This document shows positions 15,850 to 52,231 of a stretch of DNA of 64,000 bases, in pieces (positions within the stretch are counted from its first letter, which is position 1; every line of letters starts with the position of its first letter). Below the pieces are notes generated by a model. The model was given only the letters and a program-made list of their open reading frames with translations. It was not told the origin of the DNA and did not search any database. This stretch comes from Moniliella sp. 'wahieum'. Taxonomy: Eukaryota. The translations under genes and the position numbers were made by a program. The stretch is taken from assembly GCA_003971905.1 (NCBI GenBank), contig RSEE01000036.1:186001-250000 (forward strand), read 5' to 3'.

Positions 15850-17280
15850 CAGCGTGACGCGTGACGCATGAGGGCGAGTGTGACGCATGGCAGCGCACAG
15901 GTGCAGTGTGCTGCGTTGCACATGGCAGGGCGCTGCACAGGGTGGGCCGGCTGGGCCTTAGCACTTAGCCGACGAGCGCAGGAGCACTGTCGCTGTGCTG
16001 CATGGCCTTGGGCCGGTCTGGCTCCGGGACCCAGTGCCCAGCACTAATCTGTGATCGGAGTGGGTCGGCCCCAACCAGCACAGCAGTGCACCACTACACA
16101 AATCCCAGAAACCAAGCCCAAAGGCAGGTCGTGCAAGTAACTGGCTTGCAGTACATAGCTTGTTGGCGCATTTGCCACCCCAGGCGTGGGGAGAACCCAA
16201 TCAATCCAGACTGGGTACTGGGATGCGTCACGCGTCACGCCTCAATCACGGCTATCAAGTTACAGATCATTCGATCATTTTGCCGGTTACCTGTTACCGT
16301 ACCGGTTACCCGCTCACCCGAATTTGCCCACATCGATAGGATCAGGGGGAAAGCTGATCGAGCTGATCGTTGCACCGTTCGAACGAACTTGAAGCCTCAA
16401 GCTTCAAGAACGATGTCGATTGACGTTCAACGTTCAACGTTCAGCACGTTCAGGCCGGCCTCAGGAACGTTCACACGTTCACAGGCCTCAGGACGTTCAG
16501 GCTGAACTTCAAGCGCTTCAAGCTTCTGCTGGCTGTACGACGGGGTTGTCGTGAGCGTTTTTACTAGTTACTAGCTAGTTACTAGTTACGCTAGTTACGC
16601 GTTACGAGGTTACGGTTACCGCAACAGCGAGCGAAGAGAGCGCGCAATACGTACCGGGGCCTGTGTACCATGTACCCGCAAATTGCGCACGGGCCATCTA
16701 AGGCGTGGCAGATCATCGATCTTCGATCATCGACCAGTATGTTAATTGCGTGTTACATGTTAATAGCGAGTAGCGCTTTGGACCGGTCCCTGGTCCCCGG
16801 TCACGCGGGCACGGTCCCGCGTCCTGAGGCAGTGCTGAGCCTCAGCGCTGAGGCGCTGAGGCCGAGGGTTGAACGTTGAAGTTTAGCGGTTCAACATTCA
16901 ACTGAACGTTCAGTCCCAGTGCATGACGAGATCCCACCTTCCGCCATCCGTCCTCGAAGTTCACTTGAACTTGAAGCTTGACTTCAAGCTTCAGCGTTTT
17001 CAACACGTTCAACCAGTATTATGCTGCCCTGCGCCGCCTCGCGCTGCCCTCTGCTGCTCCTATGGCGCTGAACACCAGCGGCCCCGCTTGGTGGGAATTG
17101 TGGGTGTCTCAGCAGGGCCGCATCGCAGTTTGTTAGTAACTTGTAGGTAGTAACTAACTAATCCCTATAGACAGACGAGCGGAGATATCGATGGGCGTGA
17201 TGCATGATGCATGTCGCATGTGGCACGCATGTTGCACTAGCATCGATCGATCATGCATCATGTGCATGCATCATGCAAGG
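15850..17280. repeat. Dense cluster of TNA/4-bp-palindrome heptamer micro-arrays
   Basis: Runs of ACGCGTC, ACCGGTT, AAGCTTC, AACGTTC, ACTAGTT, ATCGATC, AGCGCTG and ATGCATG. Confidence 0.9.
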
Positions 17281-17624
17281 AGGCGACAACCCTTTTTTTC
17301 GGAAGGTGATGGTATACACGAGAGGGACTCAGTACTCACGACGCCTTTGAAACGAGGGAGAGAGGAGCTGTTTCGACTGTTGGGACAAGGCGCGAGGCGA
17401 CAAAGGACCAGGGTGGCACTCAAGAGCATTTCTGTCCCTCGATTATGATGACACGAAGATACTCTGCCGCCAAGACGACGGCGGGCAAGGTGTTTGAGAA
17501 CCCTGTGGAAACAATCAACTGATGAAGAGTTATTCACTGGCTTACATGTCCACACCACACGCCCATTGGTAGTATCTACCCGCGCTACTTTCCGGTTTGA
17601 AAACGACGGGGGGGGGGAGGGTAA

Positions 17625-17692
17625 AGGGGCGACGGTGGACGGTGGCAAGGTGGCGAGACGCAATCCGGGCCGTAGGCCCGGTGGTCTCCTAG
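17625..17692 (+). mobile_element. Helitron-like 3' terminus
   Basis: GGTGG-rich tract, then perfect hairpin CCGGGCC-GTA-GGCCCGG (17665-17681), 7 nt, CTAG (17689-17692) followed by T. Related termini recur at 33126-33147, 51589-51607, 54856 (-) and 58130 (-). Confidence 0.7.
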
Positions 17693-18318
17693 TAGTATCT
17701 TGCGATTAAGATAGGCGCCTACATGAGAAGAGCAAAAGAGATCATCACATGTGATAAGATGGGTCTTCCAAAAACCGACGTCAAAATGATAGTGGAGATG
17801 TCCCTAGTACCATGTTGGCCCTAGTACAGGGACATCGACGGTAAAAGAGAAAGTATGCGGAACTGTGAAAGGGTACTACCGCTTGTGGAAGGGCAACAAT
17901 AGAGAGTGTGTGCGGGCCCCCTCCGACAGTCACAAAAAGGTGAGAAAAAGGAAGTCGGGGACAGCTAGGAACGGTAGGATGAAGTTAAGAGAGCACTTGG
18001 CACTTGTCGATGAAAACTAAGAGCTCTGATAGAAGGTACTACCGGGCCGTCTCTTGTGTAACAAAATGTCAATGAGTGGATTGGGGAAAGTGTTGATGGT
18101 CAGCATCATCGCAAACTCTGACCTCTTGGCGAGAAGATTACTCCTCCTTATCCACTTTCTGGGGCAGGGCCAACACCGGACGGCACACTTCCGACCCTGT
18201 CAAACACGTGTGGCTTCACAACTGTATTTGTAGTGGCATCCGGTAAAATGTAGGTATGCTCAGTGGTATCCTTGAGAAGGGTAGAATCTGAGAGAGCAAC
18301 GTTAATAGACGCGTGACC

Positions 18319-21300
18319 TTACCCACTACTAGAGGAACCAGGCGAGAAGAGGGTGGTCTTCCCCGCTCCATCCGGACTTGCCATAGTAGGAGCTGTAGTG
18401 TCGCTCGAAAAGGAAGTTTGGTCGACCAGCTCGACCGGGAGGGGTGCAGTTTTCTCTTTTGGTGCGGAGGACGTGGGCGTGGCAGGACTTAAAGCGAAAG
18501 CAGCAGTCGCTACACCAACGACCTCTTTAGTCTCGGTATCTGTGGCCGTGTGGTGATGCGCGTTCTTACTCATCGGTACCGGAGGCTCTGATTCTCTTAC
18601 TGTCGCGGCGGCACCAAGAAGGGAAGATATAGTGGCTGGGGTGAGAACGGTAGGAGGGACCATCTCTGCCTTAGCCTGCTCCTTCACCCATTCGGGGCTG
18701 GCGCTGTCCATTGCACAGGAAACAGACTCTGGAACGACAGGAGCAGCCGAAACCGTCCTTCCTTCAGTCCTGAGGCTCGGACTCGGAGACGCTTCCTCCT
18801 CCTCAGGTTCTTCACCGGTGGCATTGACACGCTCCAATGAGCCCATTGGCCCCTTCACCTGCGGTGTGGATGGCATCTCTTCGACCATGGAACTGGGAGG
18901 GATCTTGGCCACTTCCTCCTTCGCCTTTAGGGGGGAAGCACTGGTCTCATTGTCCATCGCAGCCTCTACCTTCACGGCCTGGGGGACGATTGGCGCCCCC
19001 CCCCGCAATAGGCTTGGCATCATCGGTGCTCTCCTTGGGATTGAACCGCACCTCAAGACAGTTTTCCCCAGTAAACAGAGTCTGCTCTAATTCAGTGGTC
19101 AGAAGCGAATCGCCTTTATCCTCTTTTGACGGGATGACAGTGCCATCTTGAGCCTCAACGGCATTTTTCGCGTCAGGAACATCCTCTTTGGTCTTCTGGG
19201 CTTGATCGAGCACACTGGATTCCTGGAGAATATGGGTCAGGGATTCGACACTCTCCTTGGCTGGCTGAGTGGAAAGGTTCGCGGGCATCTCATCCTTCGC
19301 CAAGGGCACTGGAACACTAACATTCTCCGCGGGAATATTGACCTTTGCCTGCTCTGCCTCTTCTCCTGCCGCAACCTCACCCTTGTTTGACACCATTAGG
19401 GTCTCGGGTTGGTAAACAGTGTTGGGATGACCAACACGCTCCGACTGAACGGTAGGCTTGGGTGGATCAATGTGCACAGGGGAAGGAACAGAATCGGGCT
19501 CCTCCACATGTCTAGGTTGAGCTGGCTCAAGTTGTTGAACTGGCTCAGGCGCTCAACGTGCTTGGGTTGCTCACCAGTCTCTGCCTTATCTGTAGGCTTG
19601 GGCTGGTGCATGGGCTTGGTGGCGGAAAGCGATACTTTCTTGGTTGCAACGGGAAGACCCTGAGGCTTCTTGTGTGACTGGACTCCAGGTTGCCCTGGGA
19701 CGAAAGTGACTGAAATCGGGAAGCAGCAGCGGCTACTCGTGAGCCAATAAAAGCAGGCGGACGTGTACGCGGCAGGGGGTTGGGCTGCTGATGTGTTAGA
19801 TCTGCGTCCCGAATCGCCGCAGGGGCCCGGGCTAAAACAGATGGAAGAGTGCGTAGTTTGGTTACAGACTTCGGCTCTTTCTTGGGTTCAAGCTCGTTAT
19901 GGTCCTTTGACTGGGCCACAAGGGTGGCTTCAGGCACGGGGAGGTCATGCTCATCCGTGTGCTGTGGTGGGTGTTGCATCCAGAGGTTCGGACAGGACCG
20001 CGGCCCCAGGAAGGGGATGCACCTGAAATGGATCTTGAGAAATGGTGACCGCCTTGGGCTTCTCTATCAGGGTGGAATTGTTGGTTACTCCCACGGTGTC
20101 GGGCTGAGAAAGTACAGCGATTGCTTGCGCTGATTCGGTAGAAGGTTCCACTGTTTGAGGAGCCATTTGAACTGGGCCGGGAGCAGCGGCAGGTTCAGTT
20201 GGTGCCGATTTATCTTCTTGCTTGGCCTCCAACAAGGAAGAAGAAGGCACGCCAGTGTTTTCCTTCGTGGCCACCACAGCCGGCGCAAGACCTTCAGGCA
20301 TCGTCTCTTCGACGCTCGGGACCTCTTTGTTCTTTAGATTAATGGGTTCCTCCGCAGTAGAACGCCTGAGGTGAGCTTGCTCCTCCACAATTGGTTCCGT
20401 GGCAATAGATGTTATGTTCTTTGTAAAGGGAGAAGCTTTCTGCTGAAGAGAATTCTCCTTGACGGATTCTTCCACAACAACATCATCCTTGACCCGACCC
20501 TTCTTAACCAAATCTTCATTGGCCGGATCCACCTCAACTTCGTTTTCCTGTACGGGCCCCTCCTGGGCGGGTTCTTCGTTGACAGTCCCCTCATTTGTAG
20601 ACTCATCCTGAACAGGCTCCTCCTTGACAGGATCTTCCTCCTTCATTGGCACCTGAATGGCAGACACTCCTTCTTTCAGTGTCCCTTCCTTGATGAAGCG
20701 TTTCGCAGCGGGCGCTTTGACGGCTGCATCATCGTCCTTGAGATGCACGACCGCTGCTTCTTGGCCACCCTCTGGAGAGAGAGACCCAGATGTGGTCGGG
20801 ACAAGTGGAACGGAGTAAGGGATGGACTTCTGTCCCAACGGAACCGGAGGGATAGGGGCAGATGAACCAGGTTTCAATGGATCAGAGGAATGCTCGTTGA
20901 GTAAGGTCTGCAAGGGCACAGTAGGGATATAGGCGCTATTCTCATGGGCAGGAGCCTGACTGGGCTCCGGCAGAGCATAGATAAAGTCACGTATACTTCC
21001 CGAAAGGGAGACGTGTGGGATACGGCCCAACCCCGGAACAAGCTCTTCCTCTTCGTGCGGGATTGCTTCAGGAGACTTGCTTCTCTTCTCCTGTGCTTTC
21101 TTGGTTGAGTGGTGAGAACCGGCCTGGGGTAATGCCTCCACGGAACTTGGCTCGTCGACACCCGTCCACACTCCAATACGAGAGCGGGACTGCTCTGGAA
21201 GTTTTTCTGTGGCATTTTGACGTTGCTCTTGTCCTTGTCCAGGACCATGTCTTCAGCTTTGACTGGATCTTCCGCTGGACCGAGGGCAGGATCCAGCGTC

Positions 21301-28462: not shown

Positions 28463-29269
28463 TAACTCCTGTCGCTCCACCAAGGGATGGGAACGCCACA
28501 GAGAGACTACTACGCACTCTCTCACACTCCTGCATCATCCCCTGGGCTTGCCGCCGCGTGCGATATCCAGTTCACCTTCCCTATTACAATTTTTGTGCGC
28601 CCACAGCGTGCACAATGTATTCCTATAGTTACGGTTATTTGGATTTTTCTACTGTTGATTCACTTCGTGTCATTAATACTGAGGCGTTTAGCGTTCACGG
28701 CTCAGGCGCTCAGTAATACTCAACCTGCATGCCATCTCCATTATTCGGCTGTGTGCCTTCCATTTCCCTTTGATTGCGTTCCTGAAGGTCTCGGACGCAA
28801 AAAAACCGTTATGTATGCTGCTTCTCTCGCAGATCAACAGCTTGGCCTGCCACCCGTGTTTGAATCCATGATGATATAGCATTTGCAAAACTTCAATGCA
28901 CTGCCACTGTGGGGGGTGGACATTTTGGGAGAAGCACCTCACTCCGACGCCAGTAAGATACTAGGGAAGACAGTCACTGACTCCAGTTTCTCATGAACCG
29001 TCAACGCCCATCGAGTCCTTGGGATTGATGAGTACATGCAACAGTTATAAACGTTCACTGCAGCTCTTTCAGGTTAGATGGTCGCCTCGATGATGAATTA
29101 AGGATATATATATTCCTTGTTACGCTTCCTGGCATGATAGAATAACGTGAGACAGAGCCGTGACAGCGACAAAGAAAAAGGGTGGTGATGCAGATACAGA
29201 GGGATATCAACAGAAAAACGTATAGCGCATCACCTGCCCGCAGAACCAGGCGTAGAGCTTCGATGACTA

Positions 29270-31051
29270 CTAGCCCTCACTTTTCCAGCTGGGATCCTTG
29301 TTGACTCCCTGACTCAACCGAGGCCTCATTTTCGCGGTCCACAATCCCACTTGTCCAGTTGACTCTTGTGGAGGGACGAAATGGGTCCATGGTAGGTGCG
29401 CCAGGCATAGGCAACGTACCAAATCATGGCCAGCAATAATATACCTAGGGCAACAACCCAAGAGTAATTAAAGGTGGAAGCGTCGTAGTCCCTAATCACA
29501 GGGAAACAAAGAACCGTCACTTCAAACGTGGTCCATACAATCGCAATGCCGTTCACCACGCGGGAAAGAATGCCTTGGCCAAGGTAAAAGGGCCCGGGCT
29601 TGAATTGGACGTCAGGATGGTTTTGGAAAATTTGGCGACAGACGATAGGGATAAGGTAGGAAGTGTCCATCCCCACCGCCGAGAGGGAAAAGATCGCCGA
29701 CACGGCTACGCGTGATGCAAAGGAAAGGAAAATAAGAGCAATACAGAGGATGACAACGAGCCAGACGGCATTGACTGTCTGCTTGGTCTTCTTGCTCACC
29801 TTGGCAAAGAACTTGCGGTCGGGCAGGCCACCGTCACGAGAGAATGCGTAGAAGGAGCGAGCATTCGCTTGGAGGGCCGTCTGGATGACAAACCAAGCTG
29901 TAGCCATAATGAAAGGCCAGATGATAAGGAAGCCCACCTTGGTAGCCCGGACCCGCAGAATCTGAGCAAAGATAAGTTCGCCCGGCATAGTGGACACATC
30001 ACTCAAGTCCATTCCACCCGAAGAGTAGACGAGGGCAATGTTGAGGAAGAGGCCAAACAAGCCGGTGCCAATTCACAACAAAGATGGCTACCGGTGCAGC
30101 AAAAGAGGCACGGGCAATGTCCTCTGACATGTGGGCACTTGCGTCGTAGTCAGTCATGACAAACTGAACCGACTGCAGGCCAACAAAGAGTCCCATTGCT
30201 TTTGATCCCCAGCCTGTCAGGTCTTGTAGGTTGCCCACATCATGCGAGCTCAACATCTCGTGCGAGGGTGTACGAGCGAGGCATACATGGCCGTGACGAC
30301 AGTTGCACCCAGGTTGATAAACACATAGCTTGATGTGAAGCGAGCAAGCCACTTGTTTGGGAAGCAGCAGATCGCACCGTGAATAACCATGATGGCAATG
30401 TAGAGGCCCACGTAGGCACCTGTGTTGGAGCCATAGCTGTTGGGGGCTGGGATGTATCCATTGGCCACATAAGCGTAGGCCCACAGCATGGACGACAGAC
30501 CCCAGGCCGTTCCGGCAATACCAGCAATCTGGCCGGTAAAGTTAAGCCAGCCCGTAACCCAGGCCACAAAGAGGCCCAGCGATGGGGCACGACAAGACCA
30601 GCAGCCGAATAGAGCCCCCCGGCCGAAGGGTATGCCGATACAAGCTCACCGATGGCAGATCCAAGGGCCAGGTTGAAGCAGGAGCCCATGAACCAAGCCC
30701 AGACCACAGCCGTTGGCCCGCCAGACTGATATGGCGAGTTGAAGGTTGTCGCAACGGACGATACGAGGCCCCTGAAGATAGATGCAATAGTCGTCAGTCA
30801 TGGGCGTGCTTAAACAAGAAAGAATGAACGAACATGATTGAGAAGGCAAAGGAAATGGTGCTCATGCTCTTGAACTCGCGAGAAAATTCGCTGTGGTGCC
30901 CCATGCGTGCGGCTAACTCATCGTCGTCGGATGTTTGAATGACATCCTCGTTGGCAGCAACAACATGGGTAGTGGGCAGGTCGTCATTGCTTGGAAACTT
31001 CTTGCGGTCGTCGTACACAGGGTCGCCTGCGGATGAGGACTGGAGAGCCAT
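29270..31051 (-). CDS. APC-family amino-acid/GABA/polyamine permease, frameshifted
   Basis: REFKSMSTISFAFSIM|GL (intron 30833-30772), GELVSAYPSAGGLY, WVTGWLN, YDASAHMSED, ARSFYAFSRDGGLP, FKPGPFYLG, STFNYS. Confidence 0.92.
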
Positions 31052-32627
31052 GGCAGAAAAGCGCCTGGAAGGAAGGTGGGTGGATGCAGCCGGAATGTTG
31101 ATCCGCGAGTGGGCCGCCCTATTATAGTCGGAGATATGGGTATCCAAGAGTGCCCGGGCTTGCGCTTACTGTAAAGAATGCCTCAGGGCCGAACACTGGT
31201 GGTTTTGCAGCAAAAATAACATGACGTACGCCGGGGGTCAGTGTAAGTGCGCTTAAGCTTGCACAAATACTATACGGATGGTGAATGGCGCAGTAGCACT
31301 GGAGGGGCCGTCGCAACAGCGTGGGGGCAGTGTTCCCTGGTGTGCGCGGTCTGCTCAAACAGACCCGGGTTCAACATACTCTTCAACGATCATCGCTCAT
31401 GAACCATGATGCATGATGCATGGTGCAAGAGCGTTGAACGTTGAACTGCTTGGCCTGTGCCTGGGCGTGACGCGCGTGTGGTCTGGGGCTTGGAGAAGCC
31501 CTGAGGCTGAGGCCGAGATGAGGCCAGGGGACAGGACTGCGGACAACAGCAGTGTGCCGAAGCACGGGTTTTGCGTTCGAAGAGTATGCGAAGGTAACTG
31601 CGCCTGGCCGCAGTACCCAATGTCCAGTTTCCTGCATCAGCACAGCGCCACTATGGCAGTTACCCCCGCCCTGTTTCCGTTTGGCCGATGGCCAGGGTCC
31701 ACGAACCAGATATCTTTTATCTCCCCGGGCTCACTCACCGGCTCGCCCTCTCTCTGTATTATCACGTCCACACGTCTTAAGCGCTTTAGGCCTTGGGCCT
31801 TATCGAGCCTTGTATCTCGCGGCTAACGGCTGGAGTCAAAACACTACACCAGCAGATCCCACAACTCCGCCTTCCACTCTTCTGTCCCCTCCCCCCCCGC
31901 CCCCGTTTCACCCATCACCAACAAACCCCTTCTGCCCCTGTCAAGCCTCCGCCACCTCATCGTTAATCAAACCTTTTTATCCCCTAGTACCCACGATACT
32001 ATCACCGGTCCCTCAGGACTCCACCGTCAGGAACGAACGGCATGAATTGCTCGTTCTCCCACCTCATTTACCTTTTCAGGCCTTAGGCCTAACCTTAGGC
32101 CCCCTCAGGCCTCCCGACCTTGTCGCAGGCCTAAGGCCTTCTCATCATCCAACGGGCTCAACTGGCGCCTCAATACTGCGTCCAGCAAGAAGAGCCGCGG
32201 CAACAATAAGGTTCTTGAGCGTGGCGGGTAGCATATTTGTAACGCGCAGTGATCTGTATTGTTATCTCCATGTTATCGATTAATCGGGTTATCGATTAGA
32301 TTATCGTCGCCGCAGTCATTAGTCACTATCAGTCACTTGTGACATCTCAATGTTGTGTGCATTCCATTGACAGAGCTTAAGGCTGGGACAGGGGGAACGC
32401 TACGTACATAAGATCGGCTGGGAAATCCTGTACACTTTTACGTCATAGGCACGTGCCGACCGGTGCCACGTTCCCAGCCACCCGCAGCCAGAGAATCGGT
32501 GATATTATTTGCCCTCTCCAGCGTGGAAGGGTTCCAGCGTGGAACGGTGGACCGGGGGAACGGTGGCTACGGTGGCGAAGGGGAACGGTGGCTAAGGTGG
32601 CGACGCAGCAGCTGACCGGGCCGTAGG

Positions 32628-33125
32628 TGAAAGATTGGGGGCTAGGGCGAAGCACTAGACTAGGCGATCAATGGGTGAGCGCGATGAATCGGTCACACCA
32701 ATGAGAGCCCAGAACCGCGGTTGTCCGTTAACTGAGAAGTAGCTACGCTACCAAGCTAAGGACGATTGCACTGTGCAGGGTGGGAACAGTCAGAGATAGC
32801 TTCTTGTAAGCTCCTGACGCTAGTCCAACCTTCAATGCAACCGATGGACAAGGACAAGCGCCAGAAGCAGGAAGAGAACAGGAAGAGAGAGAACAGGAAG
32901 CTCACCTGTGCAGGTGGGAACAGTCAGAGATAGCTTCTTGTAAGCTCCTGACGCTAGTCCAACCTTCAATGCAACAGGGAGAAGAGGAAGGAGGGGAACG
33001 AGGGCGCGACGGTAACCAATCCGGAGCGCGCGAGTTGCGGAGCTCTATAGCCAGTTCCGCTTGCCAGCGACATGGCCGATCCAGCCATCACACCAAGTGG
33101 TGCCACATGCCACCACACTCCAACA
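32628..33125. mobile_element. Solo LTR (498 bp) with 5-bp target-site duplication
   Basis: Starts TG (TGAAAG) and ends CA (CCAACA), flanked by GTAGG at 32623-32627 and 33126-33130. Removing it restores the hairpin seen at 17665. Confidence 0.85.
32772..32975 (+). repeat. ~70-bp direct duplication inside the solo LTR
   Basis: TGTGCAGG(G)TGGGAACAGTCAGAGATAGCTTCTTGTAAGCTCCTGACGCTAGTCCAACCTTCAATGCAAC at ~32772 and ~32908. Confidence 0.95.
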
Positions 33126-33479
33126 GTAGGCCCGGTGGTCCTCCTTGTGTGACATATGACTGGAGTGACGCCTGAAGCATGATGCATGATGCATGACGTG
33201 CATGACAAGTGGGGTGCGATGCATGATGCATGATGCATGATGCATGCCCGCCAACGCCAGACAGGGGATATGCCTTAGGCGTTAGGGTTGATGTGCCGCA
33301 CGTCACGCGTCATGCACCATGCATCACATGTTGTTCACGTGACATCACATGTGACATGCAGCATGCGGACAGCAGTGTTTACACAGTTGAACGTTCAAGC
33401 GCGCTCAAGCTTCAAGAGCTTCAAGGTGCGTTCAAGGTGAACGTTCAGTTGAACACGGTGATGCGGTGATATATGATGG

Positions 33480-34126
33480 CCATCCCCGACGAACCTCCTG
33501 TGGAGAAGAGGATGGGTCGAGGCGCGGGAGGAGGGCACTGCGCACCGACTACCGCGTAATGGGGCCTGGAACAATCGGAGGATCAGGAACGGAGGTGGAC
33601 CACACGCTGCGCACCACACGGGATCGCAGGAGGCGCAGAGCGCGTACCGAAAGATGGTGCATGATGCATGCATGATGCATGATGAGAGCACCGCGACGCC
33701 GTTATAGTTGGAACGCCGGGAGAAGGACCTGCTTCAGCTGCTGGAGCAATCAGAATGCGACGAAACGCCAAATACCAGGGACGCACTCAAGAGCCGTTTC
33801 CCCCCCTGGTTTTGACGACGCGAGGATACTAGGGCACCAAGACAGAGGGCAAGATGCTCGGGCACTGGAAGGATTTGACTACTGACTGTCAATGGAAATG
33901 GTTCCTCCCTCGGATGTCTACCACGTTCATCCATGTTCACACGCGCTTCCTCGGGTATGGGAACGGATGGCGGGCATCAGAGGGTCCTGACCTCCTGGCG
34001 ATTCCGTTCCTTAAGCGGGGTTGGCGCTACCAAGCAGCACACGCAAGATGAACGGGTCGGCTTAGGCGTAGCGTTTCCCTGTCCCAGCCTTATATAAGCT
34101 CTGTCAATGATATGGATGCAATATAG
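33480..34126 (-). mobile_element. Helitron-like family copy (5' end plus ~600-bp ORF-like body)
   Basis: Its reverse complement aligns by eye to 44520-45150 and 51615-52231; 5' motif TATATTGCATCCATATCATTGACAGAGC. Confidence 0.7.
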
Positions 34127-37100
34127 CTAATACATTCCGAAGAGCAGATGATAGATGACAGAGGGGGAGACTCAGGAGCCCGCCGGGTGTGTCTACGGGA
34201 TCAGTTGCTTCAGACAAGACGTGAAGGCGACGTGGTGCGCTTTTCTGAACCTCAAAAAGTCATAAGCGTTAGCACAGCCGATGAAAAGGGGAAGTCAAGA
34301 GAGCAAAATAAAATGAAAGTGTTGTAAGAGGGAAGAACCACTAAAAGAACGCCGAACATCTGAATCTCCTTTGAAGCCGGAACAAATACTATAGAAAACG
34401 CTTCTTGCACCAAGTCCGCGTTCGTCCAGGGTTTCCCTCAGCTCGCCCTCGCCCAATGAGGATGCAAATGGCGTCACCATGCAACTGTAGGGCAGTCAGT
34501 ATATAACTTTTCCGGCTCTCCTTCTATTCTTCTTCGTTCCTATTTTGGGATGTCGCACGAATGATGTGATATACGGACGAGCATTATAAGTAGTGTACAC
34601 CGCGGAACCATAAAGCAGTCAAAGAGAGAGAGAGTTTTTTTGAGCCACAGTTATTTCCAGGTGTCAAACTTCTATATTCTTATAGCAGGCTCTTGGTGAC
34701 GAAGACTTTTCTCCCGTTTTCAAGACGGCCACACCAGGGAAGGGGGAAGACGTATTCAATATAGTTTTCCAGAAAACGTTAGGAAATTTCTCATGTGATT
34801 CTCGTCTACTTATAAACAAGCAATTTAGTGCCATCTTCTCTCACCGTTCCGGATGAATATGGGCGCTGCGTTGAGTCATGACCAGATTCTCCGTGATCAA
34901 ATGGCCGTACAATCACAGATAGCCCTTACTGACTCAAGGAGCTAAGGGGATGGATCACGAAAACACGGATGAGAGCGAGTGAAGTATCGAGTATGAAATC
35001 GGTGTCGTTCGTCCAGAGAGGACGACAGGAGATGTGACCGCAACACAGGAGCACAAAAAAGGCGCGCAGAGAGGGTGGAGGGGGGGGGGTAGTACAGTGG
35101 CGTATCCGTCCGGGCATCGTAACACAAAAGCGACTGTCTAGGGAAGCCATCATCTACACGTCCGACAGCTGTCACATATCATAGCACCTTGGTAGACTTT
35201 ACTCCCATCGTCACAATTTCCTTCTGTTGAGCGTCTCTCGTCCTTCCCCTGTTTTCGTGTTTTGATCCATGTCCTCTTTTTTTGTGTCTCAAGAACAATT
35301 CCTCCATTCTGCGGCCCTTCGTCTCGACTGAGGTCTTTGTTCTCTCGTCTTTGAGGCGTGTCTCTCCTGGGCGTATATTTCCATCCGTAGGCATCACCAG
35401 CCTCATCCCGTCTCTGTTCTCTCTGTTCTCGTCTATACGTATGTATGTAATAGTCTATCTCCACATCCCTCTGTGACATTAATCAAATGTCCCTGCCTCC
35501 ATTATCACCGGCGGTCATATGTTGGTGCCATTAGGGTATATATGTCCCGCCATGTTTACTTCCCCTTCTTTATTGTTGCAACAAGTTATGTTCGTTAGGA
35601 ATATATGGGAGCACTAATATGGATTACATCTGTATTTACAAAAGTACTTGGAGTACCTGTGTGAGGCTTATATCTTGAAAACGGGTGCAGGCGAGGATTC
35701 TCATTGCTTACATGGGGCCATCCCTCAGATGTGCACTTGCGCTTTGGGAACTAACGACCCTGACACGCACACAATGACGAGGGGACTTTAGGGAAAGTCT
35801 GAATCTGGTTGTCGGTAAGCTCAAGAGGCATACTACGTTCATTAATCGCAAATACAAATGGCAGCAAAAGTGTACTAAAGCCAGTTAACTCGCATAGCCT
35901 CTGTGTAGGAGGGAGATTGCTTCGGATGCCGACAGGTATTCATTCAGGCTGCATGGAATGGTGCCTTATATACCAGAGAAGGAGAAGCTATCACACACGG
36001 TAGATCACGCGTGAGAGGGAAAAAGACACAAAAGGGGGCGAGGAAGATCTAGAACAAGGATCATACCCACATCCTGTGGGAATGTGTGTCTGATCCGTCA
36101 CTCTGAATGGATCAACCACACGTATACACATCGCGTCCCTCGTTCTCTGAGTCTTTTGAGTATCATGCATCATGCCGAAGCTGTCGTCACATCTCTTTTC
36201 AATGCTTGCAGTGAGTTTTTGAACTATTTTATTTCTAGGTATCGGGTGGACTTGAGGAGTTCAACAGACCCACTATATATAACGGTATACTTGATGCTCG
36301 TTGACCTCTGTCATATATAGAGTATCTCACGGATCTCGCGCATATCGCTCCCATTAGCAATCTTTCATCCCGAGACACTTTCCCTGCTCTTCCGCTTCGC
36401 ACCATGTCCTTTGCTCTTACGACCGAAGCCTCCACGTGTTACTCCGGCTTGTTCGAAACCCTGTCTCTTCCGGGTATATGGAGCTAGGAAAAGGTGTCAC
36501 GGGACGACGATCGCGCTCGCTTCTCGACTTCTCTCCCTATCACTTCTCGAATCCTCTATCTTTCGCCATCGCTCGCTATCGTGACTCGGATTCTCGGCCT
36601 AACTACAAAACCCACAACAATCATCTCTTCTGCGCTCGGGCTCGTCTAAAATCCAAATACTACACATGGTTTCGACTCGGTTTATCGCCTCTCGTTTCTC
36701 GTCTCGGGTCCGCTTTACATCTTGAACCTCGCCCGTCTCTGACTTAGTGCCTCTCGTGATTGATCAACACTCCTCCCTCCTGAATCGTTTCCCCTTTTCG
36801 CTGTATAGGCCTGTTGGTCTTTCCTTTTCCCCGTCTCTTCTATAAAACCTGCCTGTTCTTAGATCCAGTTGTCATGGCCTATTAAGCTGCCCGCCATTGT
36901 TTCCCCCTCACCCTTATTCTGTAGTCACTCTCCACTCTAGAAGAACCACCTTTTAATCAGTTCGCTTGCCCTCCCTCGCCCATCATCGGAGCTCCTCGTT
37001 TTCTCGCCCAGCTCCTAACGTGCAACCTCTTTTGCAGGGGCTAGGCTCTTCCGGACGAACAGCAAAGCACTATTCGCGACCCTCCTACGTTTACGCCAGT

Positions 37101-39729
37101 GTTCTTTGGACTTTGGATATAAACAGCGTTCAGTTCTCCGTGAGTCTTATCTCCGGTAGGGAGGAAGGTCTCCGCCTGGGAGGCCAGCAACTCCCGTTAC
37201 AGAAGGTTTAGACCTTAACCACTACCATCGCTATTGCATTGCTCAATGTACATTTCAAGAGGTTCAACATCCAAATAGTGCCTCCAAATAGCAGAGAGCG
37301 CAACGTATGTTTTGGGACGGGCCCAATGCTTCATGCTTCATGGACCACTTGTAGTGTCATAGCCCTCTCTTCTATAAGGTTTGTTGCCTTCCGAGAGAAG
37401 CCTGTTACCACTGTGGTTTTTTTAATTGTTCAAACCCCGGCCTCTTCCATCAGATGTGTAGCCTTCTAAGCTTGTTAGATCTTAGACCTCAACGTAACAT
37501 CAGATTCATCATGCATCATCGATCATCGCCATTGCATTACCGGTTACCGGTTCCCGGTTACCCCGCTCAAATTTCAACCCCGTGGGTTCCCCCAGTCTTG
37601 CACAATGCTCTTGTTGGGTGGGGTACTGGTGCATTATATGAGGAAGTGCTATCGGATGTTATTCTTAGTGCCTTCGCAGCCTCGCTTGCTTCTGTTGGGG
37701 GGGGTGCTGGGGTTCCCCTACACGGCCCTCGGTGGATCGGTGACGCTCACTCACTTAACCGGGCGGAAGAGTTCCGCTCGCAGGGCGCGCACGCCCTGCT
37801 CGCTTCATCTCCCTTCTCTCTCTCCTGTCTCCTTCCCTTCACGTTACCTGAAGACTTATGGCCCACCACTTTGCCTTCACGCCTTGTCTGAAGGCTGCTT
37901 TGCAGCTGAACCATTCTATGTTGACCAGGGTCCTATGGGCCAGCCACCTCCGCGGCACTCCTGACCATCTTACTCATCCGGGCACCACACCAGTATCCCT
38001 ATCCCCTGGCCTAGTGCCGCCCTCCTTTCTTCTTCTTCTTCTTCTGATCCTCAGTCTGGGTTCAACCCAGCTCCTGTCTTCTCTCTGCCATTGCATACTG
38101 CACTTAGGACGTCGCTGGGTAACCAGGATCATTATTCTAGTAGCTTCGTCTCTGCTTCGCTCTGTCAACATCTATATGCCAGTGCGGTGGGGCTTAGACA
38201 GGAGGGGTTACCAAAACAGGGTCAGCCAACAGTCAGCATCCTCGATCAGTGGGATCCTTTATCCCACCTTCCATTCTCGTCCCTTCCCGCCTGGTTTCCG
38301 GCCAGCTGATTGAGTAATGCAGGCAACCTCTCGTCTCCACTTAGCTGCCTCATCCTCATCATCCAACCTCGTCCTCCAGCTTTCATCCGCCCGGTCACGC
38401 GAGCCTTCCTTCAGCGGCGTCGATTCGCCCTACCACAGCGTATCGCGTGGGTTCCTTTCACAGCTACGTCCACAGCCGCCCCCGCCCAGCTTCAGTCCTG
38501 GCAGTCTTTGTCTTCCACAATCTACCCGTCCCTAAGCTCCGGAGGCTTCAGACACGTTACTACCCCCCCAAGCCGGCGCATACACAGCCTTTCCGCGCGT
38601 GCGGCCGCCTCGGCTTCACGCCCAAAGGCTTCTCCTCGGCTCGGATCCATCAAATAGCAGCCAGTCACGTGCAGGTCGGCGGGCAGTAGGGTTCACATTT
38701 TCTTTGCCTGCTCGCATATAGAACTAAGAGATGGCGGGAAACGGGGTTGCTTTGCGTGGTCCCATATCTCATCATCGACTTGCGTAACATCCATCAAACA
38801 TAGTAATCATACCTATGGAACCGCGATCATCAATGAATGTCACATGTCATCTCAATTAGCCTGTAATAAAAAGTGCGTTGTCGGTCGGCCGCACAGCAAT
38901 CTCAGTTGCTGGGCCCTTTTCCCATCCCCTCCGCATGCACTACCCATGAGACAGAGTACTCACATGTCACACTTGAAGCTCTTGAAGCTTGAAGCTTACC
39001 GTATTGCCTGTGATGTATATTTTCGCAACACCCCCCCGTCAAACACATAGGCACGCCTACCTTCCCTCCTTCCATGTGGAGATATTACCACCCGATGAAG
39101 AGAATCTGACACGTTGAAGCTGTACCCGGGACTTGTTCCTTTTTCAGGACTTAAGGCCATCAGAGTTGTGGGACAAAAAACGTTGCACTTAAAAAACCTT
39201 GCTGATGCGGCGTGCATTGCATGCTCGTTTTGGCGCCAAAATCATTTAAGAACCAAGGGGCCCCGCTAGTATAAGTCGGACCCTTGGGTGCCCGCCATTG
39301 GCTTCCACAAAATGTATGTCGTCCGTGACGGGTGAATACGAATGATGCGAATGAATAACGTGTTGTTGGTATACACATGTGAGCGCGGTGCCCGGTGACG
39401 TGAACCATCTTCAATCATATGAGGGGCTTTTCTCGGTTTATTAATTATTCTCCTTCCGGTGCCCAGCAAAACATCTTGTTGGGGGTCTTGCGGTAGCATG
39501 GTATCCGCACTCGTCATGACCAAAGGGGAAGAAAGGCTGTGGAGTGTTGCGGCATCCACTTCTGTTGCTTCTAAAAATGCGCCACATCCCTTGATGGGAG
39601 CATAGTGTATACCCCTGCATGGCCGTGTGGCTCTCTCTGTGCCCTGCAAACTGAGAGGTGCAGGGCCCCGGCCGAATATAAGCTTTCGTGCCACTGGCAA
39701 CAGTAGCCAAAGCCGTAGGGATGATTTAG

Positions 39730-41045
39730 AGCCACGTCACGCGTCAGGGTACCCTCCGGTTTTTTAGTCTATCTCGTTACAAAATCGTGCTTTTTGTCAC
39801 CATCCGATGATAATACGAACAGGTGTGGCTTAGCGCTTTTAATAGGCTAAGTGCTTAGCTTGGGGTGGCGGGTTAATTAATGGACTTCCCGTACCCCGCC
39901 TTTCGAGCGAGTTTGTGGCTTAAGATTTAGTATCGATGATCGAGATGATCGTGAAATCATGCGTTACAACTAACATGCAGCACCGGGCACCGGGCACCTG
40001 AGAAATAGTTGTGGAACAGAGGCATAGAGGCTGTAACATGTAACATGTGACATGTGACATGCGATCGGTGACCTGTTGTGAACGCGTGTGTGCATGTGAA
40101 CGTTGAACATAGGAAGCAGTGCTCTCAGATCTCAAGCTGAGCCCAGCTATGATGTGGGGTTGTGGTGCTACCGGGGCAGAATACCAATGTTGCGGGACAA
40201 GAGAGCGGTGGCGCCAACGCACGTTACATTCCACCATGCTCTCGCCTTCTGTCGGTCGTGTTGAGGAAGTGCATGGCTGCTCAGCGCTCAGCAGGCATCA
40301 GCTTGTTGGACTTCAAGCTTCACTTCAGCTTCAAGTGAAGCTTGAGAACCCCAATCTCAATCTCAATGTGCCGCCACATTATCCCACCTAGAGTGTGCCC
40401 ACAGGAGATGACATCCTAAAGCGCCTCAGCCTCAGTGCTGGAAGCTTTAGATCTGAGATCTGAGATTGAGATCTGAGAGCTTGTGAATTTTGGAAGGAGC
40501 GCCGAGCAAAGGCACCCTGAATGTATGTGATCATGTGACGTCAGCATGAGAGAGAAGCCTGCTGCCTGCGGCGAGCCTGCGGGGAGACTGTGGGGAACTG
40601 TCGGAGGCTCGGAGGCAGGCACTGCATCAGTGCGGAGAAAACGGTGCGGGCGGGCGGGCGAATGTCTTGTACCCTCCTGTGCCTTGCATCAGTCCTTGTA
40701 CTGAACGTACTTGTTCCAGAGACTGCAGACGCACGTCTCCGAGAGCTCGGGCAGAGCGAGCAGGGCAGTGGAACACTTACCTTTGCAGTCACTCTCACTA
40801 GCTCCACTAGCTACTAGTTCTAGTTACTAGTCACTCATGTCATGCATCATGCATCATGCACCACGGATCATCGACCATCGACCATCGATCATCGATCATC
40901 TCCCGATGGGCCCCGAGAGCCGCAGGCGCTGGCCATCCTGAGCGTTAGCGCTCCTGCCTCAGGCCAGGCTCCGAAGCCCGCCTCACCTGGGCTTGAGGAG
41001 CTTGAAGCTTGAGGCCTGATGCATGATGCATGACGCATGAGCGAC
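39730..41045. repeat. Dense cluster of TNA/4-bp-palindrome heptamer micro-arrays
   Basis: Runs of ACATGTN, AGATCTG, ACTAGTN, ATGCATC, ATCGATC and AAGCTTG. Confidence 0.9.
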
Positions 41046-41535
41046 GACCAGGCTGGTCCATGCCAGCGTGGGGCCGCCAGGCTGCTCACCTGAGCGCGAT
41101 GGCGGCATAAAACCTACCGCAGCTCCCTTGTGCTGAGCTGCGAGTCGCTTTTCCCTCTGTTTCCTTCCCAACCCCCCTAGCTTGCCACCACCACCATTAG
41201 CATCGTCGCATAATTATGGCACCGCCACCTTCTTCATTCCCAGGCATCGACCGCAGCGTTTTCGCCCGGTCCGTCGTCGTCTTCGCGCCTCTCTGCTCCA
41301 CGCACGTGGTTTCGTCGTCGCGGCTCAGTCCCTGTCCCACCAGCATCCGACCTGCGTGCCACTGCTGCCAATGCCGCAGCCCCACACGCCATGGCTGGCA
41401 GTGACACTTCATCCCAGCCTCCCCGCCCTGCGAGCGTCTCCACCACCATTTACTGCTGAGGGCATCGCCACGACTCGGACCCCGTATGGCGAAGTATACG
41501 CCCTCTAAAACCCCTTCCGTCGCGCATCCGGTCCC

Positions 41536-43436
41536 ATGAATAGCGCTGTCGCATCGTCACAGCCAGCGGCGGCACCGGAGCCTGCACCGGAAGCGGCACC
41601 GGAGCCAACCCCTTCCTCGAAACAACAAAGCGGCACTAACTAATGGCGGTTATACCAGCGCGGCCTCTGCTGGTGGCTCCGTCTCGCCCTTGACAGCCCC
41701 CACCCCCGCAGCTCATTTGGCTTGGTTGTCATTTTACCGCTGCTGCTGCTCGGTTACTCGGCAGTGATGGCCACCACGTGTCTGCTAATGCTGCTCCCCA
41801 GCTTTCCCCTGAAATTGCCCCCGAGGTGACTTCCCCATCTTGGGATTGTCCTGGCATGAAAGGTTCCTCCCCCTGCTCCACCGGGCTCGGATCGTGGTCA
41901 AAATCCACTTCATACGTTTCGTCGCCTTGTTCCGATGTTGGACTGGAGCACGAGGAATGCAGGTCTGGTTTGATCCCATCGAGCGCCAGATCGAGCAAGA
42001 TGGAGAGGCACTGTTCCTTGGTCGCTTTACTGATCGCTCGCCCTTTAATCCGGATCTCTCCGCTGACACGGGAGGGGTGCACCCAACTGGGCAGGCGAGC
42101 ACCCATGCGTCTCCCTCACACCAAGAAGCACGCGCCTTGGGCAATGCCGATGGGAGTGATGGCGGCAATCATTCTACCGGCCCTACTCTATCTCCTCATC
42201 GAATGCGTGGTGGCGCAATCCCCAATACCAATGGCAACCCACCACGCCTGGAACAATATCGTGCTGCGTTGTCGGCCAAGGTCGTTTCGCGAAAACACGT
42301 TGAGATTTGGTGCACCTCTGACCCTCCCCCCTCCAAGGCTGGGAAACCTCTTTCCGAAGACGTGGGCCCCCTAGATATCAATCGTCCCATATCACCTCTG
42401 GTTTTAGGGATGAACGATGAGCATGCGTCTTCGGGGAAGAAGCTCTGGATTCGTCTGTTCAGGCGCCTGCACAAACGCCAGAAACCCCTGCTGTCAAGTG
42501 GTGGATCCGTGACCTGGGTAGCAGTGCTGGAACGTTTGTCAACAACACACTCTCTCCAAGCCTTTGGTGGCCAGTGGGCCAACGGAGCTGCACGAGGGAG
42601 ACGTTGTGAAGCTTGGCGTTAACTATTCCAGGGGACGCAACGCCTACCAGGCAGTTCAGATGAAGGTCGAGCTGCACGACGTTGATGTGCAGACAGAGTA
42701 TGCGGCCCATGCTCGGCGCTACCTTGCCCAGCAGTTGCACAAAAACGACAGTGCCACGCCTGCAGTGGTGCCGGCGAAAGATGGCACCGCAGCCGTGCCA
42801 GCCAAAGATGGTACCCCAGCCGTGCCGATAGCTGAATGCTGTATCTGCCTCTTTGGCATGACGGTTTCTCAGAGCTTGTTTATTGCTCCCTGCAGCCATT
42901 CCTTTCACTACAAGTGCATCCGCCCTCTGTTGATGCGCCTTCACCCAGGCTTCTGCTGTCCCTTGTGCCGCAGCTTTGCCGACCTGGACGAGGAGGTGGA
43001 CGCGGTCGATATGGATGCCAAGCCAGACTCTACCCAGGCAACCTCGAACGCCCAGACAACCTCGAACGATCAGGCAACCTCGAACGATCAGGCAACCTCG
43101 AACGCTCAAGCAACCTCGAACGCTCAAGCAACCTCGAACGCTCAAGCAACCTCGAACGCTCAAGCAACCAGCCCCACCGCAGCTACTACCTCATTCGCGC
43201 CCTCTACAGAAGCAACAAGGCCGGCGAATTATAATAAGGGCAAGGCTCCCGAAGCCATCGGGGAAAGTGTGGCGGCGATGGTGGCGGCAGGAATGCTGGA
43301 CGTGTCTACACAGGGACGGAGCGCTCCTTCTGGCGAACACGTGCGCGAAGCTTCCGGGACGGATTCCTCGGCGCATTCAGGCTCGAGATCGGAGGGGATC
43401 ATGGGTCGCACGAGTCCGTCTCGTCAGCATCAATGA
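41536..43436 (+). CDS. DMA1: FHA + RING-H2 E3 ubiquitin ligase (Dma1/Dma2 family), frameshifted
   Basis: FDPIERQ..LGRFTDR, SAKVVSRKHVEIW, GSSAGTFVN, ELHEGDVVKLGVNY; RING ECCICL..FIAPCSHSFHYKCIRPLL..CPLCRSFADL. Start uncertain (ATG at 41216 or 41536). Confidence 0.9.
43035..43169 (+). repeat. Coding 18-bp tandem repeat (QATSNA/D x7.5)
   Basis: Units of consensus CARGCAACCTCGAACG(A/C)T directly after the RING domain. Confidence 0.97.
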
Positions 43437-44375: not shown

Positions 44376-44481
44376 TAAGCTCTGTCAATGATATGGTTAT
44401 AGCATATAGGAGTCGGTTTCGGCGCAGCGTTTCTTTGTCCCAGCCTTCAGCTCTGTCAACGATATGGTTGCAGTATAGGGA
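44376..44481 (-). mobile_element. Two tandem 5'-end fragments of the Helitron-like family
   Basis: AGCTCTGTCAAYGATATGGTT occurs at ~44378 and ~44449, the reverse complement of the family 5' motif. Confidence 0.65.
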
Positions 44482-44519
44482 AAATGACCAGATAATTATG
44501 CACCAGTATCCTTTACTAG

Positions 44520-45150
44520 TATATATTGCATCCATATCATGACAGAGCTTAAGGCTGGGACAGGGGAATCGCTACGTCTAAACCGAACCAATCATCTCGC
44601 GGGGATTACTTTTAGAGGCGCCACCAAAGTTAAGGAACCAGGGGGATCGCCAGGATATCAGGATGACCCCCTGGTTCCGCCATCCGGTCCCGTACCCTAG
44701 GTAGCGCGTGTGGACACGGATGAATGTGGTTGACATCCGAGCGAGGGACCATTTCCATTGAGACTCAGTAACCAAATCCTTCCAATGCGAATATCTTGCC
44801 CGCTATCTTGGTACCACCGTAGTATCCTCGCGTCGTCAAAACCAGGGGGGGGAAACGGCTCTTGAGTGCGTCCCTGGTACTTGGCGTTCTTGTCGCATTC
44901 TGCTTGTTCCAGCAGCCGAAGCAGCTTCTTCTCCCGGCGTTCCAAAGGCGAGACGCAGCGCTCTCGTGCACCACCCTCCGGTAGCGCTCTGCGCCTCCTG
45001 CGTTCCCGTGTCGCGCAGCATATGGTCCACCTCCATTCCAGATCCTCCGATTGCTCCGGGCCCTATCACGCGGTAGTCAGAGCGCTGTGCCCTCCTACCG
45101 TCCCGCCTCGTCCCATCCTCTTCCTCCACTGGCATAGGTTCGTTGTGGAT
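44520..45150 (+). mobile_element. Helitron-like family copy (5' end plus body)
   Basis: Begins TATATATTGCATCCATATCATGACAGAGCTTAAGGCTGGGACAGGGG and is colinear with 51615-52231. Confidence 0.7.
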
Positions 45151-45449
45151 GTGGGTGTCGGGGATGGAGCGCACGAACTGGGCTCCCGCACTGCCTCATG
45201 CAACGCATTAAACTTGGCATATATGGGAGCGGGTGCACACCATGATGTGCTCCAGCGAGGACATGACGCCGCACTTGCACATGCTGCGCTTGGAGCGGCA
45301 CAGCGTGCGGAGCTGGAGACCAACCTGAACCTGCTGGTCAGAGAGCTTGAGGCACGGGACAGATGGAATGGCGGAGAGCCAATTGCAGTGGCTCAGCGGG
45401 CTGCTGTGCTCAACCATATGGCGACCATCGGCAGCGTCCAGCTTCTGGA

Positions 45450-45820
45450 GCAGCTCCTGTTGACTCTAGAACGCCACAAATACCATGGACGTGCCCAAGA
45501 ACCGTTTTCTCCCTGGTTAGACAGCGGACAAGATGCCTGGTACCTGGAAGGAATGGACTCCTGAGTCTCGATGCAGATGTTTCACCGTTCGGATGTCTAC
45601 TACCACGTTCTTCATCCGTATCCACGCGCGCTTCCCCGTGTATGGGAACGGATGGCGGGTACCAGAGGGTCCTGATCTCATGGCGATTACCCTGGTTCCC
45701 TAGACGAGGATGGCGCTAACAAGCAACATATACGCCGGATGAACGAGTTGGTTCAAGCGCAACGTTTATTTGTCCCACAGCCTTAAAGCTCTGCCAATGG
45801 TATGGTTGCGCGAAGTAGAG
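45450..45820 (-). mobile_element. Diverged family copy, inverted relative to 44520-45150
   Basis: 45470-45810 matches 33765-34120 in the same orientation (KYHGRAQEPF vs YQGRTQEPF; GTATGGGAACGGATGGCGGG; AGCTCTGYCAATG). Confidence 0.65.
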
Positions 45821-46931
45821 ACTCAATACTCAATTTCTCAGCCGGCTTTCGGCGCTGAGGCGCTGAAGAAGCTTGAAAAGGCATTGATCATTTCGATCAT
45901 TTCGATCATCGATAATCGATAATCGACTATCGTTAACAACGTTGGTAAGGCTGGCCAACGCCAGAAAGAGCTTGAAGGCTGACGCTGATGCTCGAAGGCT
46001 GGCTTGAAGGCTCCAAGCTTCAAACTTGAAATATTATGCCGGCTTGCATTGCGAGATCTGTGCTGTGGTCAGAGAAATTTTGGCCATATGAAAGCCGACT
46101 GCAGTGGCTACATCCCAGGAGACGATGGTCCAAATAGGCCACAAGGGAGAGTTTGCGCAGCAGGTGGTCGAGAAGAGCGGGAAAGCGGTGGTGCACAAGA
46201 AGTAGCCGTCAATTCGGTCACTGTGCTGGACGGTCGACATGATCGACAAAAGCGAAAAAGCATATTGTTGTTGGCCATACATCACAGTAGTCATTTACAT
46301 GGCCTGAGGGCCAGACTACTAGTCAACTAGCCGAGCTTCAATAGTCACCTAGTCACACGCCGGACGGTCAAAGTCCGGTCAACAAAATGTAGGCGGTGCT
46401 ATAACATCTTCAAGGGTGGGGGGTGATGTACGTTCACATAGCACGTTCACATGTCACATGTCACAATGGTCCTGTGTCCAGCCACTAGCCCTCGGCACAT
46501 AGGCAGCGTTCAGCCGGCCCAGGGACACTGGATTCGTGCTGGGGGCGAAGCGGGTGGAGTGACTACAGTGCTGAAACTCAATGTTCCATGTTCGCCACTC
46601 GGAAGGCGGGGCGGGACGTGGCGGGACTGGTGCACAAAGAAATAGTCGTGCAGCACAGGGCCTGTGTCTGGGTCGCGCAGATCTGCGGATCCCATTTTTA
46701 TTACGCTTTCCGGCGCGCAGCGTGACGCTTGGCTGGGGAGAAATGGCCTGACCACCTTAGTCGCCCACCCAACTGTTGCCATCACGGTGGCTCCGATGGC
46801 GGAGGTGTCGATCCGGTGGTCATAAAGTCGCTGGATAGCTACCTTCCACTCCTAGGGAACCCACCACTACACTACCCCCTCTTCAACGACTCTTCCACCC
46901 CCCCCCACACATTCTTTTGCTTGTTCACACC

Positions 46932-50997: not shown

Positions 50998-51499
50998 GTC
51001 TGTCATGTCCCTCAGTGCACCTATGTTACGTCGTTGGCTTGCGTGCCGACCGTACCTGGAATCTGGGTCACATCGAAAATGATCCATACATGTATAGGCA
51101 CTGCCAGTGTCTAGGACTTCACCTTAAGCCTGACTCACATTTGTGGGGATCTTTGGCGTTGCGGGCACGTCATTTCCGCTTCTTCACTGGCAGATGATCC
51201 TTGTGACACCGTCATACCTATACAGTTGCTTTGAATGGGAACAAAGGAAGTTGGAGGTATGAAGCTGTGAAGTCGGGCAAGAGGATGTAACACTTTCTAG
51301 TGACCCTCTTCGTCTCCAATTCCTAGTCTCATGTCTACAGCACTGAATATTGACCTCGCAGAGTTCAATCGGCGCCCCCGCTTATGTCCATGAAGTGTCC
51401 AAATATACCACAAATACACACGGGTCTTCGCGTGCGCCCTGCGCCTACATCAACTCTAAACCATCTTCATCATGACGGCGGCCGTAAGGAGTGTACTAG

Positions 51500-51607
51500 T
51501 ATATTGCATCCATATCATTGACAGAGCTTCAATTAAGGCTGCGACAGGGAAACGCTACGCCTAAACCGACCCGCTCATCCGGCGTGTGAGGCCCGGTGGT
51601 CTCCTAG
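51500..51607 (+). mobile_element. Minimal (~108 bp) Helitron-like element: family 5' end joined to family 3' end
   Basis: TATATTGCATCCATATCATTGACAGAGC ... AGGCCCGGTGGTCTCCTAG followed by T. Confidence 0.7.
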
Positions 51608-51614
51608 TTCACGT

Positions 51615-52231
51615 CCATTTCATTGACAGAGCTTAAGGGGGACAGGGGGAACGCTACGTCTAAACCTACTAACCGTTCATCTTGCGGGGGTTACTTGGAA
51701 GCGCTACCAAGGTTAAGGAACCGGCGGGATCGCCAGGATATCAGGACCCTCCGGTTCTCGCCATCCGGTCCCGTACCCTAGGAAGCGCGTGTGGACACGG
51801 AGGAACGTGGTTGACATCCGAGCGAGAACCATTTCCACTGAGACTTCGTAGCCAACTCCTTCCAATGCGCAAACAACTTGCCCGCTGTCTTTTGGTGCCG
51901 TAGTATCCTCGCGTCGTCAAAACCAGGGGGAGTTCCCCTAACCTGCTCTTCCCAGAGTGCGTCCCTGGTACTTGGCGTTCTTGTCGCATTCTGCTTGTTC
52001 AAGCAGCAGAAGCAGCTCTTCCTCTCCGGCGTTCCAAGGGGGTTGCGGCCCGGGTGCTCTCATGCACCACCCTCCGGAACGCGCTCTGCGCCCCCAGCGA
52101 TCCCGTGTCGCGCAGCGTGTTGTCTACCTCCATTCCTGAGAGCCTCCGAGTGCTCCGGGCCCCATCACGCGGTAGTCGGTGCGCTGTGTCCTCTGTCTCC
52201 TGCCATCTCTTCCCCACCATAGGTTCGTTGC
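51615..52231 (+). mobile_element. Helitron-like family copy (5' end plus body)
   Basis: Colinear with 44530-45150, including shared GTAGTATCCTCGCGTCGTCAAAACCAGGGGG and GAGTGCGTCCCTGGTACTTGGCGTTCTTGTCGCATTCTGCTTGTTC. Confidence 0.72.

Follow-up and report, generated by a model that had tools for sequence, protein, structure and literature searches.

A TGCATGA-type mini-array private to one copy of a dispersed repeat family in Moniliella sp. 'wahieum': a candidate microsatellite birth by stepwise local duplication

A short tandem array in one copy of a dispersed fungal repeat appears to have arisen there from a single heptamer. The analysis covers a stretch of 64,000 nucleotides of Moniliella sp. 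'wahieum' (contig RSEE01000036.1, positions 186,001 to 250,000), to which we refer as the window and in whose numbering all coordinates are given. One full-length copy of a non-coding repeat family, copy A, carries a compound TGCATGA-type mini-array of 28 nt (33658-33685, + strand; identified from the sequence and with TRF), and alignment shows that 21 bases of it (33665-33685) are missing from copies B, C and F. It is likely that the array was gained in copy A, all mechanisms taken together. As to the mechanism, we lean towards local duplications, step by step, that began from a one-unit seed within copy A: the comparison of the copies suggests the birth of a microsatellite in a decaying repeat copy.

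The letters and coordinates that the original prediction had given for copies A, B and C matched the window exactly on re-reading. Copy A reads GATGGTGCATGA at 33653-33664, followed by the 21 extra bases on the + strand and by GAGCACC at 33686-33692; the corresponding sites are GGTGGTGCATGAGAGCACC in copy C (reverse complement of 52053-52071) and GGTGGTGCACGAGAGCGC in copy B (reverse complement of 44958-44975). Both MAFFT and hmmalign open a single clean gap of 21 columns in copies B and C, which they set at 33661-33681; owing to repetition in the flanking letters, this gap and the interval 33665-33685 represent one event in two registers. The three-way MAFFT alignment of copies A, B and C has a mean column identity of 80%. 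The extra bases are indeed private to one copy, as had been claimed: the long state is present in one of the four copies that span the site, and the most diverged of them, copy F, is short, as are B and C.

The pre-insertion site had been described as a single TGCA-TGA seed. This holds for copy C, which has a single TGCATGA at 52060-52066, but not for copies B and F, in which the word is TGCACGA-like and hence no seed; in other words, B and F carry CACGA where A and C carry CATGA. Copy F has its own insert of 5 nt (17312-17316) at exactly the insertion point of copy A, and this insert makes the palindrome GTATAC. A GTATAC insert of 6 nt is also found in copy G (39142-39546, - strand), at a different position from the site. 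The GTATAC inserts of F and G may point to a local hot spot for indels, or to insertions that create palindromes.

The three stretches had been taken for paralogous copies, and self-BLAST, MAFFT and an nhmmer profile built from copies A, B and C agree in assigning them to one dispersed family of about 660 nt, which was defined by self-BLAST and this profile. The window contains three full and four partial copies as well as isolated 3'-end pieces. Copy A extends from 33471 to 34138 on the + strand (nhmmer score 708; BLAST identity 79% to B and 77% to C). The other full-length copies are B (44498-45160, - strand; alignment and nhmmer) and C (51603-52240, - strand), the latter with a duplicated 3' end next to it at 51488-51589. 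Copy F (17297-17591, + strand, profile positions 180-470) is a diverged partial copy that includes the site at 17305-17324. The site lies outside the three 5'-truncated copies found with nhmmer, i.e. copy D (45439-45818, + strand, profile positions 249-644), which stands head to head with B, copy E (58537-58868, + strand, profile positions 327-644) and the diverged copy G (profile positions 299-624). Isolated 3'-end pieces were detected with nhmmer at 51488-51589, 44410-44483 and 32345-32405. This 3'-end segment of about 75-110 nt is solitary at 32345-32405 and part of a tandem at 51488-51589. Beyond the 3' end of copy B it is present once more in inverted orientation, so that a 170-nt palindrome is formed at 44413-44586. 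Close to copies A, E and F (32517-32605, 58171-58250, 17631-17660), and also at 54872-55094, there are repeated occurrences of arrays and words of the GGTGGCGA / GGAACGGTGG type, possibly fragments of a larger ancestral unit.

Most copies have a common 3' end and a variable 5' truncation, with fuzzy ends, and in this respect the family resembles non-LTR retroelements. The label of transposon that had been given to it is compatible with the dispersed copies and their common ends, but target-site duplications, coding capacity and protein relatives are lacking. None of the five copies tested had a target-site duplication (the longest words shared by the flanks were 5-6 nt, with none at B), no conserved reading frame runs through the family, and neither Pfam nor Rfam gave a match to it, Rfam having matched nothing in the entire window. 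The longest open reading frame, one of 232 aa that runs antisense over copy B, has no protein relatives. The stops in all frames and the lack of a Pfam match led us to reject the view that the family derives from coding sequence or from a transposase, and the inverted repeats 34208-34240 / 37861-37893 near copy A were discarded as candidate element ends since no clear ends could be recognized. We therefore regard the family as an unclassified non-coding dispersed repeat, for which 'transposon' is a reasonable but unproven label. A search of metagenomes for further copies with a conserved 24-nt family word gave no loci; with an 18-nt family word, 29 metagenome loci were found, none of which fits the family profile at E <= 0.001, so that we consider them chance matches.

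The extra bases had been read as three heptamers (3x7). They are not clean heptamers: the 28 nt are made up of four TGCA and four TGA blocks that are out of register, in the order TGCA, TGA, TGCA, TGCA, TGA, TGCA, TGA, TGA, and each block is exact. TRF accordingly describes 33658-33685 both as period 11 in 2.6 copies, with the best score, and as period 7 in 2.4 copies. With three exact TGCATGA words and partial units arranged head to tail, the mini-array is a short tandem repeat. Even if 3 mismatches are allowed, the window has no second copy of these 28 nt, and none of 100 shuffles produced them. According to a breadth-first search, tandem duplications alone are sufficient to lead from the short to the long state, and the shortest route has three of them (3, 7 and 11 nt). 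Hairpins do not stand out at the site, where single-strand folds were no better than those of shuffles (z = -1.8, -0.25 and 0.0).

Several observations bear on the direction of the change. The p-distances are 0.179 between A and B, 0.185 between A and C, 0.154 between B and C, and 0.33-0.36 between F and the others. Since copy F is both the most distant copy and short, a gain in copy A is favoured; copies B and C may count as a single observation because they are mutually closest relatives. The difference between CACGA and CATGA points the same way. From a short ancestor that contained the CpG, the TGCATGA seed would result from an ordinary CpG-to-TpG change, whereas a long TGCATGA ancestor would require that B and F each acquired a T-to-C change that created a CpG.

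The opposite direction would mean that the long allele is ancestral, i.e. that the source copy had a TGCATGA array and that B plus C and, separately, F contracted it to one unit or deleted 21 nt. We judge this to be rather unlikely, and yet it has points in its favour. A 21-nt deletion between ATGA at 33661-33664 and ATGA at 33682-33685 converts the long state into the short one in one step, and with this 4-nt microhomology the product is exactly the short allele. Event counts cannot settle the direction because of this single-step reversal, and the claim that the array was born de novo in copy A therefore stands as the likelier direction and no further. Moreover, two losses (one for the sisters B and C, one for F) compare with three or more gains, and a one-unit remnant would be the natural end point of the contraction of a short array. 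Against an ancestral long allele speak the short state of the most distant copy and the sequence CACGA in B and F, which is not a clean leftover unit and adds two CpG-creating changes. In addition, substitutions would be expected in an array of the age of the family.

The blocks of the array are exact despite 59 private substitutions of copy A over about 610 aligned sites (about 10%), and we take this as mild evidence that the array may be younger than copy A. A RIP-like bias was not seen among the private changes: transitions make up 33 of 59 in copy A, 27 of 39 in B and 18 of 41 in C. The array had also been called recent. This goes too far: according to our own arithmetic, a 21-nt tract that is as old as copy A would stay clean with a chance of about 0.1, and the family copies, which differ by 15-36%, are old.

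We infer the following order of events for the stepwise birth of the array. Copy A would first have separated from its sister copies, and growth of the array would have occurred only afterwards. A C-to-T change at the CpG would have converted a TGCACGA-like word to TGCATGA, which has internal TG..TG and TGA..GA micro-repeats and is the unit of the commonest heptamer array. Local duplication would have followed at least three times, by 3, 7 and 11 nt or in smaller and more numerous steps, probably by replication slippage or 'indel slippage'. Small local duplications are common in the family: 11 of the 39 private inserts of at least 2 nt are exact tandem copies. The word TGCATGA is present 41 times in the window as compared to 11.5 expected occurrences, and most of its about 16 isolated occurrences are unexpanded, so that expansion would be occasional rather than obligatory. 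Two points weigh against a birth by slippage. Slippage usually sets in above a threshold of more than one unit, and the starting state here, with one unit, is below it; furthermore, generic slippage does not explain why a period of 7 is favoured. The comparison extends to the four copies that cover the site, all within one species. The general route is documented: in a review, microsatellites are described to arise within copies of transposable elements via substitution, indel slippage and replication slippage (PMC3812793).

A different source for the inserted bases would be the array-rich zone just 5' of copy A (33173-33455), which contains TGCATGA arrays at 33177-33196 and 33218-33246. In this scenario, template switching or short-patch gene conversion from a distance of 410-480 nt, with TGCATGA as the microhomology, would have delivered a templated insert as an effect of proximity. 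The longest word that the insert shares with another array is in agreement with such an event: 17 nt (33668-33684) are identical to the array about 440 nt upstream, at 33219 and 33226. However, arrays of one unit are expected to be identical anyway, and the irregular TGCA-TGCA join is absent from the upstream array. This join recurs once, in the array 17251-17277 on the other strand, directly next to where copy F is truncated at its 5' end, and it lies within an exact word of 15 nt that is common to the insert and to 17263-17277. This can be read in favour of copying, and it may equally be a coincidence, a shared mutational tendency or the result of copying between arrays. A single donor for the whole 28 nt was not found in the window. 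A further candidate, 40840-40870, has a 16-nt word in common with the expanded site and was considered as a fifth copy; there is no further homology, and we rejected it as a coincidence. Finally, copy C has an intact seed and, about 730 nt away, a TGCATGA array (52792-52808), and it is unexpanded. Thus, a seed close to an array is not sufficient, and the proposed dependence on position comes down to one case with copy C as a counter-example. Altogether, we find a templated insert improbable.

The mini-array of copy A is one of many heptamer arrays in the window. Perfect tandem arrays of at least two units plus 3 nt were counted and compared to the expectation from a third-order Markov model: there are 19 arrays with a period of 7, as compared to 0.07 expected, and nine, four and one with periods of 3, 6 and 8, respectively. 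At a minimum length of 15 nt, the window has 31 perfect period-7 arrays, 29 of which contain a 4-nt palindrome. The rule that the heptamers consist of a palindrome plus TNA, or equivalently of A-palindrome-T and one further base, was confirmed for 26 of the 31 arrays (25 of 30 without the array of copy A itself). The arrays are very short, at two to four units, and diverse, with at least 13 unit classes and nine palindromes, and TGCATGA is the commonest unit (8 of 31). A 4-nt palindrome plus TNA is followed in phase by the same palindrome 48 times (0.8 expected) and by a different palindrome 38 times (9.8 expected; the largest number in 50 simulations was 19). Among all 16 spacer types, TNA is prominent, and hexamer palindromes of the A..T class are 1.5-fold enriched as compared to 0.9-1.0 for the other three classes.

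By eye, the arrays are located in intergenic zones that include the 5' end of a gene (for example 4637-5771, 15265-18319, 31165-31522, 39900-41694, 45850-46839, 56642-59597 and 62640-63079), and they are absent from both clean 3'-3' zones, 28876-29329 and 60116-61719. Examples of array-dense segments are 16200-17300, 33170-33460, 39980-41040, 45850-46470 and 57760-58260. Arrays of the same unit often form mirror-image pairs at a distance of 30-350 nt, as at 15852-15869/16223-16240, 40840-40870/41010-41040 and 17198-17213/17250-17277, and the segment 33169-33367 is a quasi-palindrome (E = 1.2e-10 in the comparison with its own reverse complement). A period of 7 in combination with one formula is not what generic slippage predicts, and unrelated transcription factor sites would not share a formula. 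Hairpin-aided slippage of the quasi-palindromic units found no support in local single-strand folds, which were not above those of shuffles. Word searches of the literature returned no description of such heptamer arrays in fungi.

The genes of the window include, according to Pfam, those for a eukaryotic glycogen synthase, G-beta, condensin Cnd3, a Gti1/Pac2 regulator, a multicopper oxidase and ribosomal proteins. The best named matches of the glycogen synthase are from Ustilaginomycotina, with 63-65% identity; one other protein is 75% identical. These genes mark the window as basidiomycete DNA. Three further features were noted. An 18-nt unit is repeated 7.5 times (94% matches) at 43035-43169 in the frame of a RING-finger protein gene (42522-43436), where it would encode a protein repeat of six residues. 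A perfect inverted repeat of 22 nt with a 9-nt spacer lies in intergenic DNA at 53168-53220. The 9.4 kb from 32283 to 41694, in which copies A and G stand tail to tail, have no open frame of at least 200 aa, no Pfam match and a GC content down to 47-52%; several + strand frames of 100-180 aa are present at 36015-39050, and the region may represent a gene or element that has decayed or evolves fast.

It is tempting to attribute the formula of the arrays to a dedicated process that writes A-palindrome4-T-N heptamers at single-unit seeds on the promoter side, with the insert of copy A as its product in formerly non-array DNA. Such a process might be a form of break repair, or it might stack the footprints that a cut-and-paste element, one with a TNA target duplication and 2+2 end bases left behind, produces upon excision. 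The excision footprint of Tc1/mariner-type elements consists of the target duplication, end bases and the target duplication again; with a TNA duplication and 2+2 residual end bases, such a footprint would amount to exactly one palindrome plus TNA, a gain of 7 nt. In favour of such a process are the reality of the formula, the excess of period 7, the in-phase palindrome successions and the prominence of TNA among the spacers. Moreover, both private inserts of copy A that are at least 4 nt long are located at palindrome plus TNA seeds. The second of these inserts is TATA (4 nt, about 34089-34093), at AGCT+TAA on the other strand, and it could equally be the result of simple TA slippage.

We nevertheless give a directed process little credence as the origin of the insert. 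Nine palindromes would demand many different element ends, the array ends have no fixed phase as judged by eye, a transposase was not found in the window with Pfam, nor was such an element, and the insert does not consist of whole units in order. Together, the nine palindromes, the missing phase and transposase, and the out-of-register insert weaken the idea of stacked footprints. The inserts of the family tell the same story. The profile alignment of the seven copies has 52 insert runs, 24 of them at least 3 nt in length, and only three of these 24 have a length that is a multiple of 7 (21, 7 and 14 nt), as compared to 3.4 by chance; the 7-nt and 14-nt inserts are not palindrome plus TNA arrays. 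Nor are palindrome plus TNA words expanded in general: the copies contain 31 such words, those of the array included, and expansion is seen only at the TGCATGA of copy A; most of the isolated TGCATGA words of the window are likewise unexpanded. The original prediction that arrays are written into DNA at seeds, in a recent and position-dependent manner, thus receives no support from this single locus. An assembly or sequencing artefact is very improbable, given that a compound insert of 21 nt in otherwise unique flanks would be an atypical error and that comparable arrays are frequent across the window.

If we return to stepwise local duplication, the process itself is known, and it is the heptamer unit that is unusual. 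Models of 'indel slippage' and substitution, attributed to Messier et al. in 1996 and to Zhu, Strassmann and Queller in 2000, reportedly have repeats begin as adjacent duplications, sometimes after a point mutation that creates the word; they do not predict that period 7 and A-palindrome-T-N units are so strongly preferred, as is the case in the window. Unstable tandem repeats in yeast promoters, said to have been described by Vinces et al. in 2009, are reportedly mostly AT-rich and of varied periods. In the window, too, short tandem repeats cluster in intergenic DNA on the promoter side, but they are heptamers with palindromes of 4-6 nt that fall into at least 13 unit classes and follow one formula. 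The closest parallel to copy A may be the proto-microsatellites in Alu and L1 elements, as described in that review: a short word in a dispersed repeat grows after integration, in one copy, by substitution and slippage (PMC3812793). The units given there are mono- to tetranucleotides, whereas copy A has a 7-nt unit that contains a palindrome, a start from one unit, and an unclassified host family.

Taken alone, the locus in copy A would be a textbook-style birth of a microsatellite and of minor importance. It is, at the same time, the only place in the window where a heptamer array can be paired with array-free paralogues, and it indicates that such arrays are able to arise in non-array DNA, from a one-unit seed, by irregular steps rather than by additions of 7 nt. 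The pattern at the level of the genome comprises the excess of period 7, one formula for at least 13 unit classes and the mirror-image pairs. Should a specific mechanism, or DNA-binding proteins of one family, underlie this pattern, that would be new for fungi.
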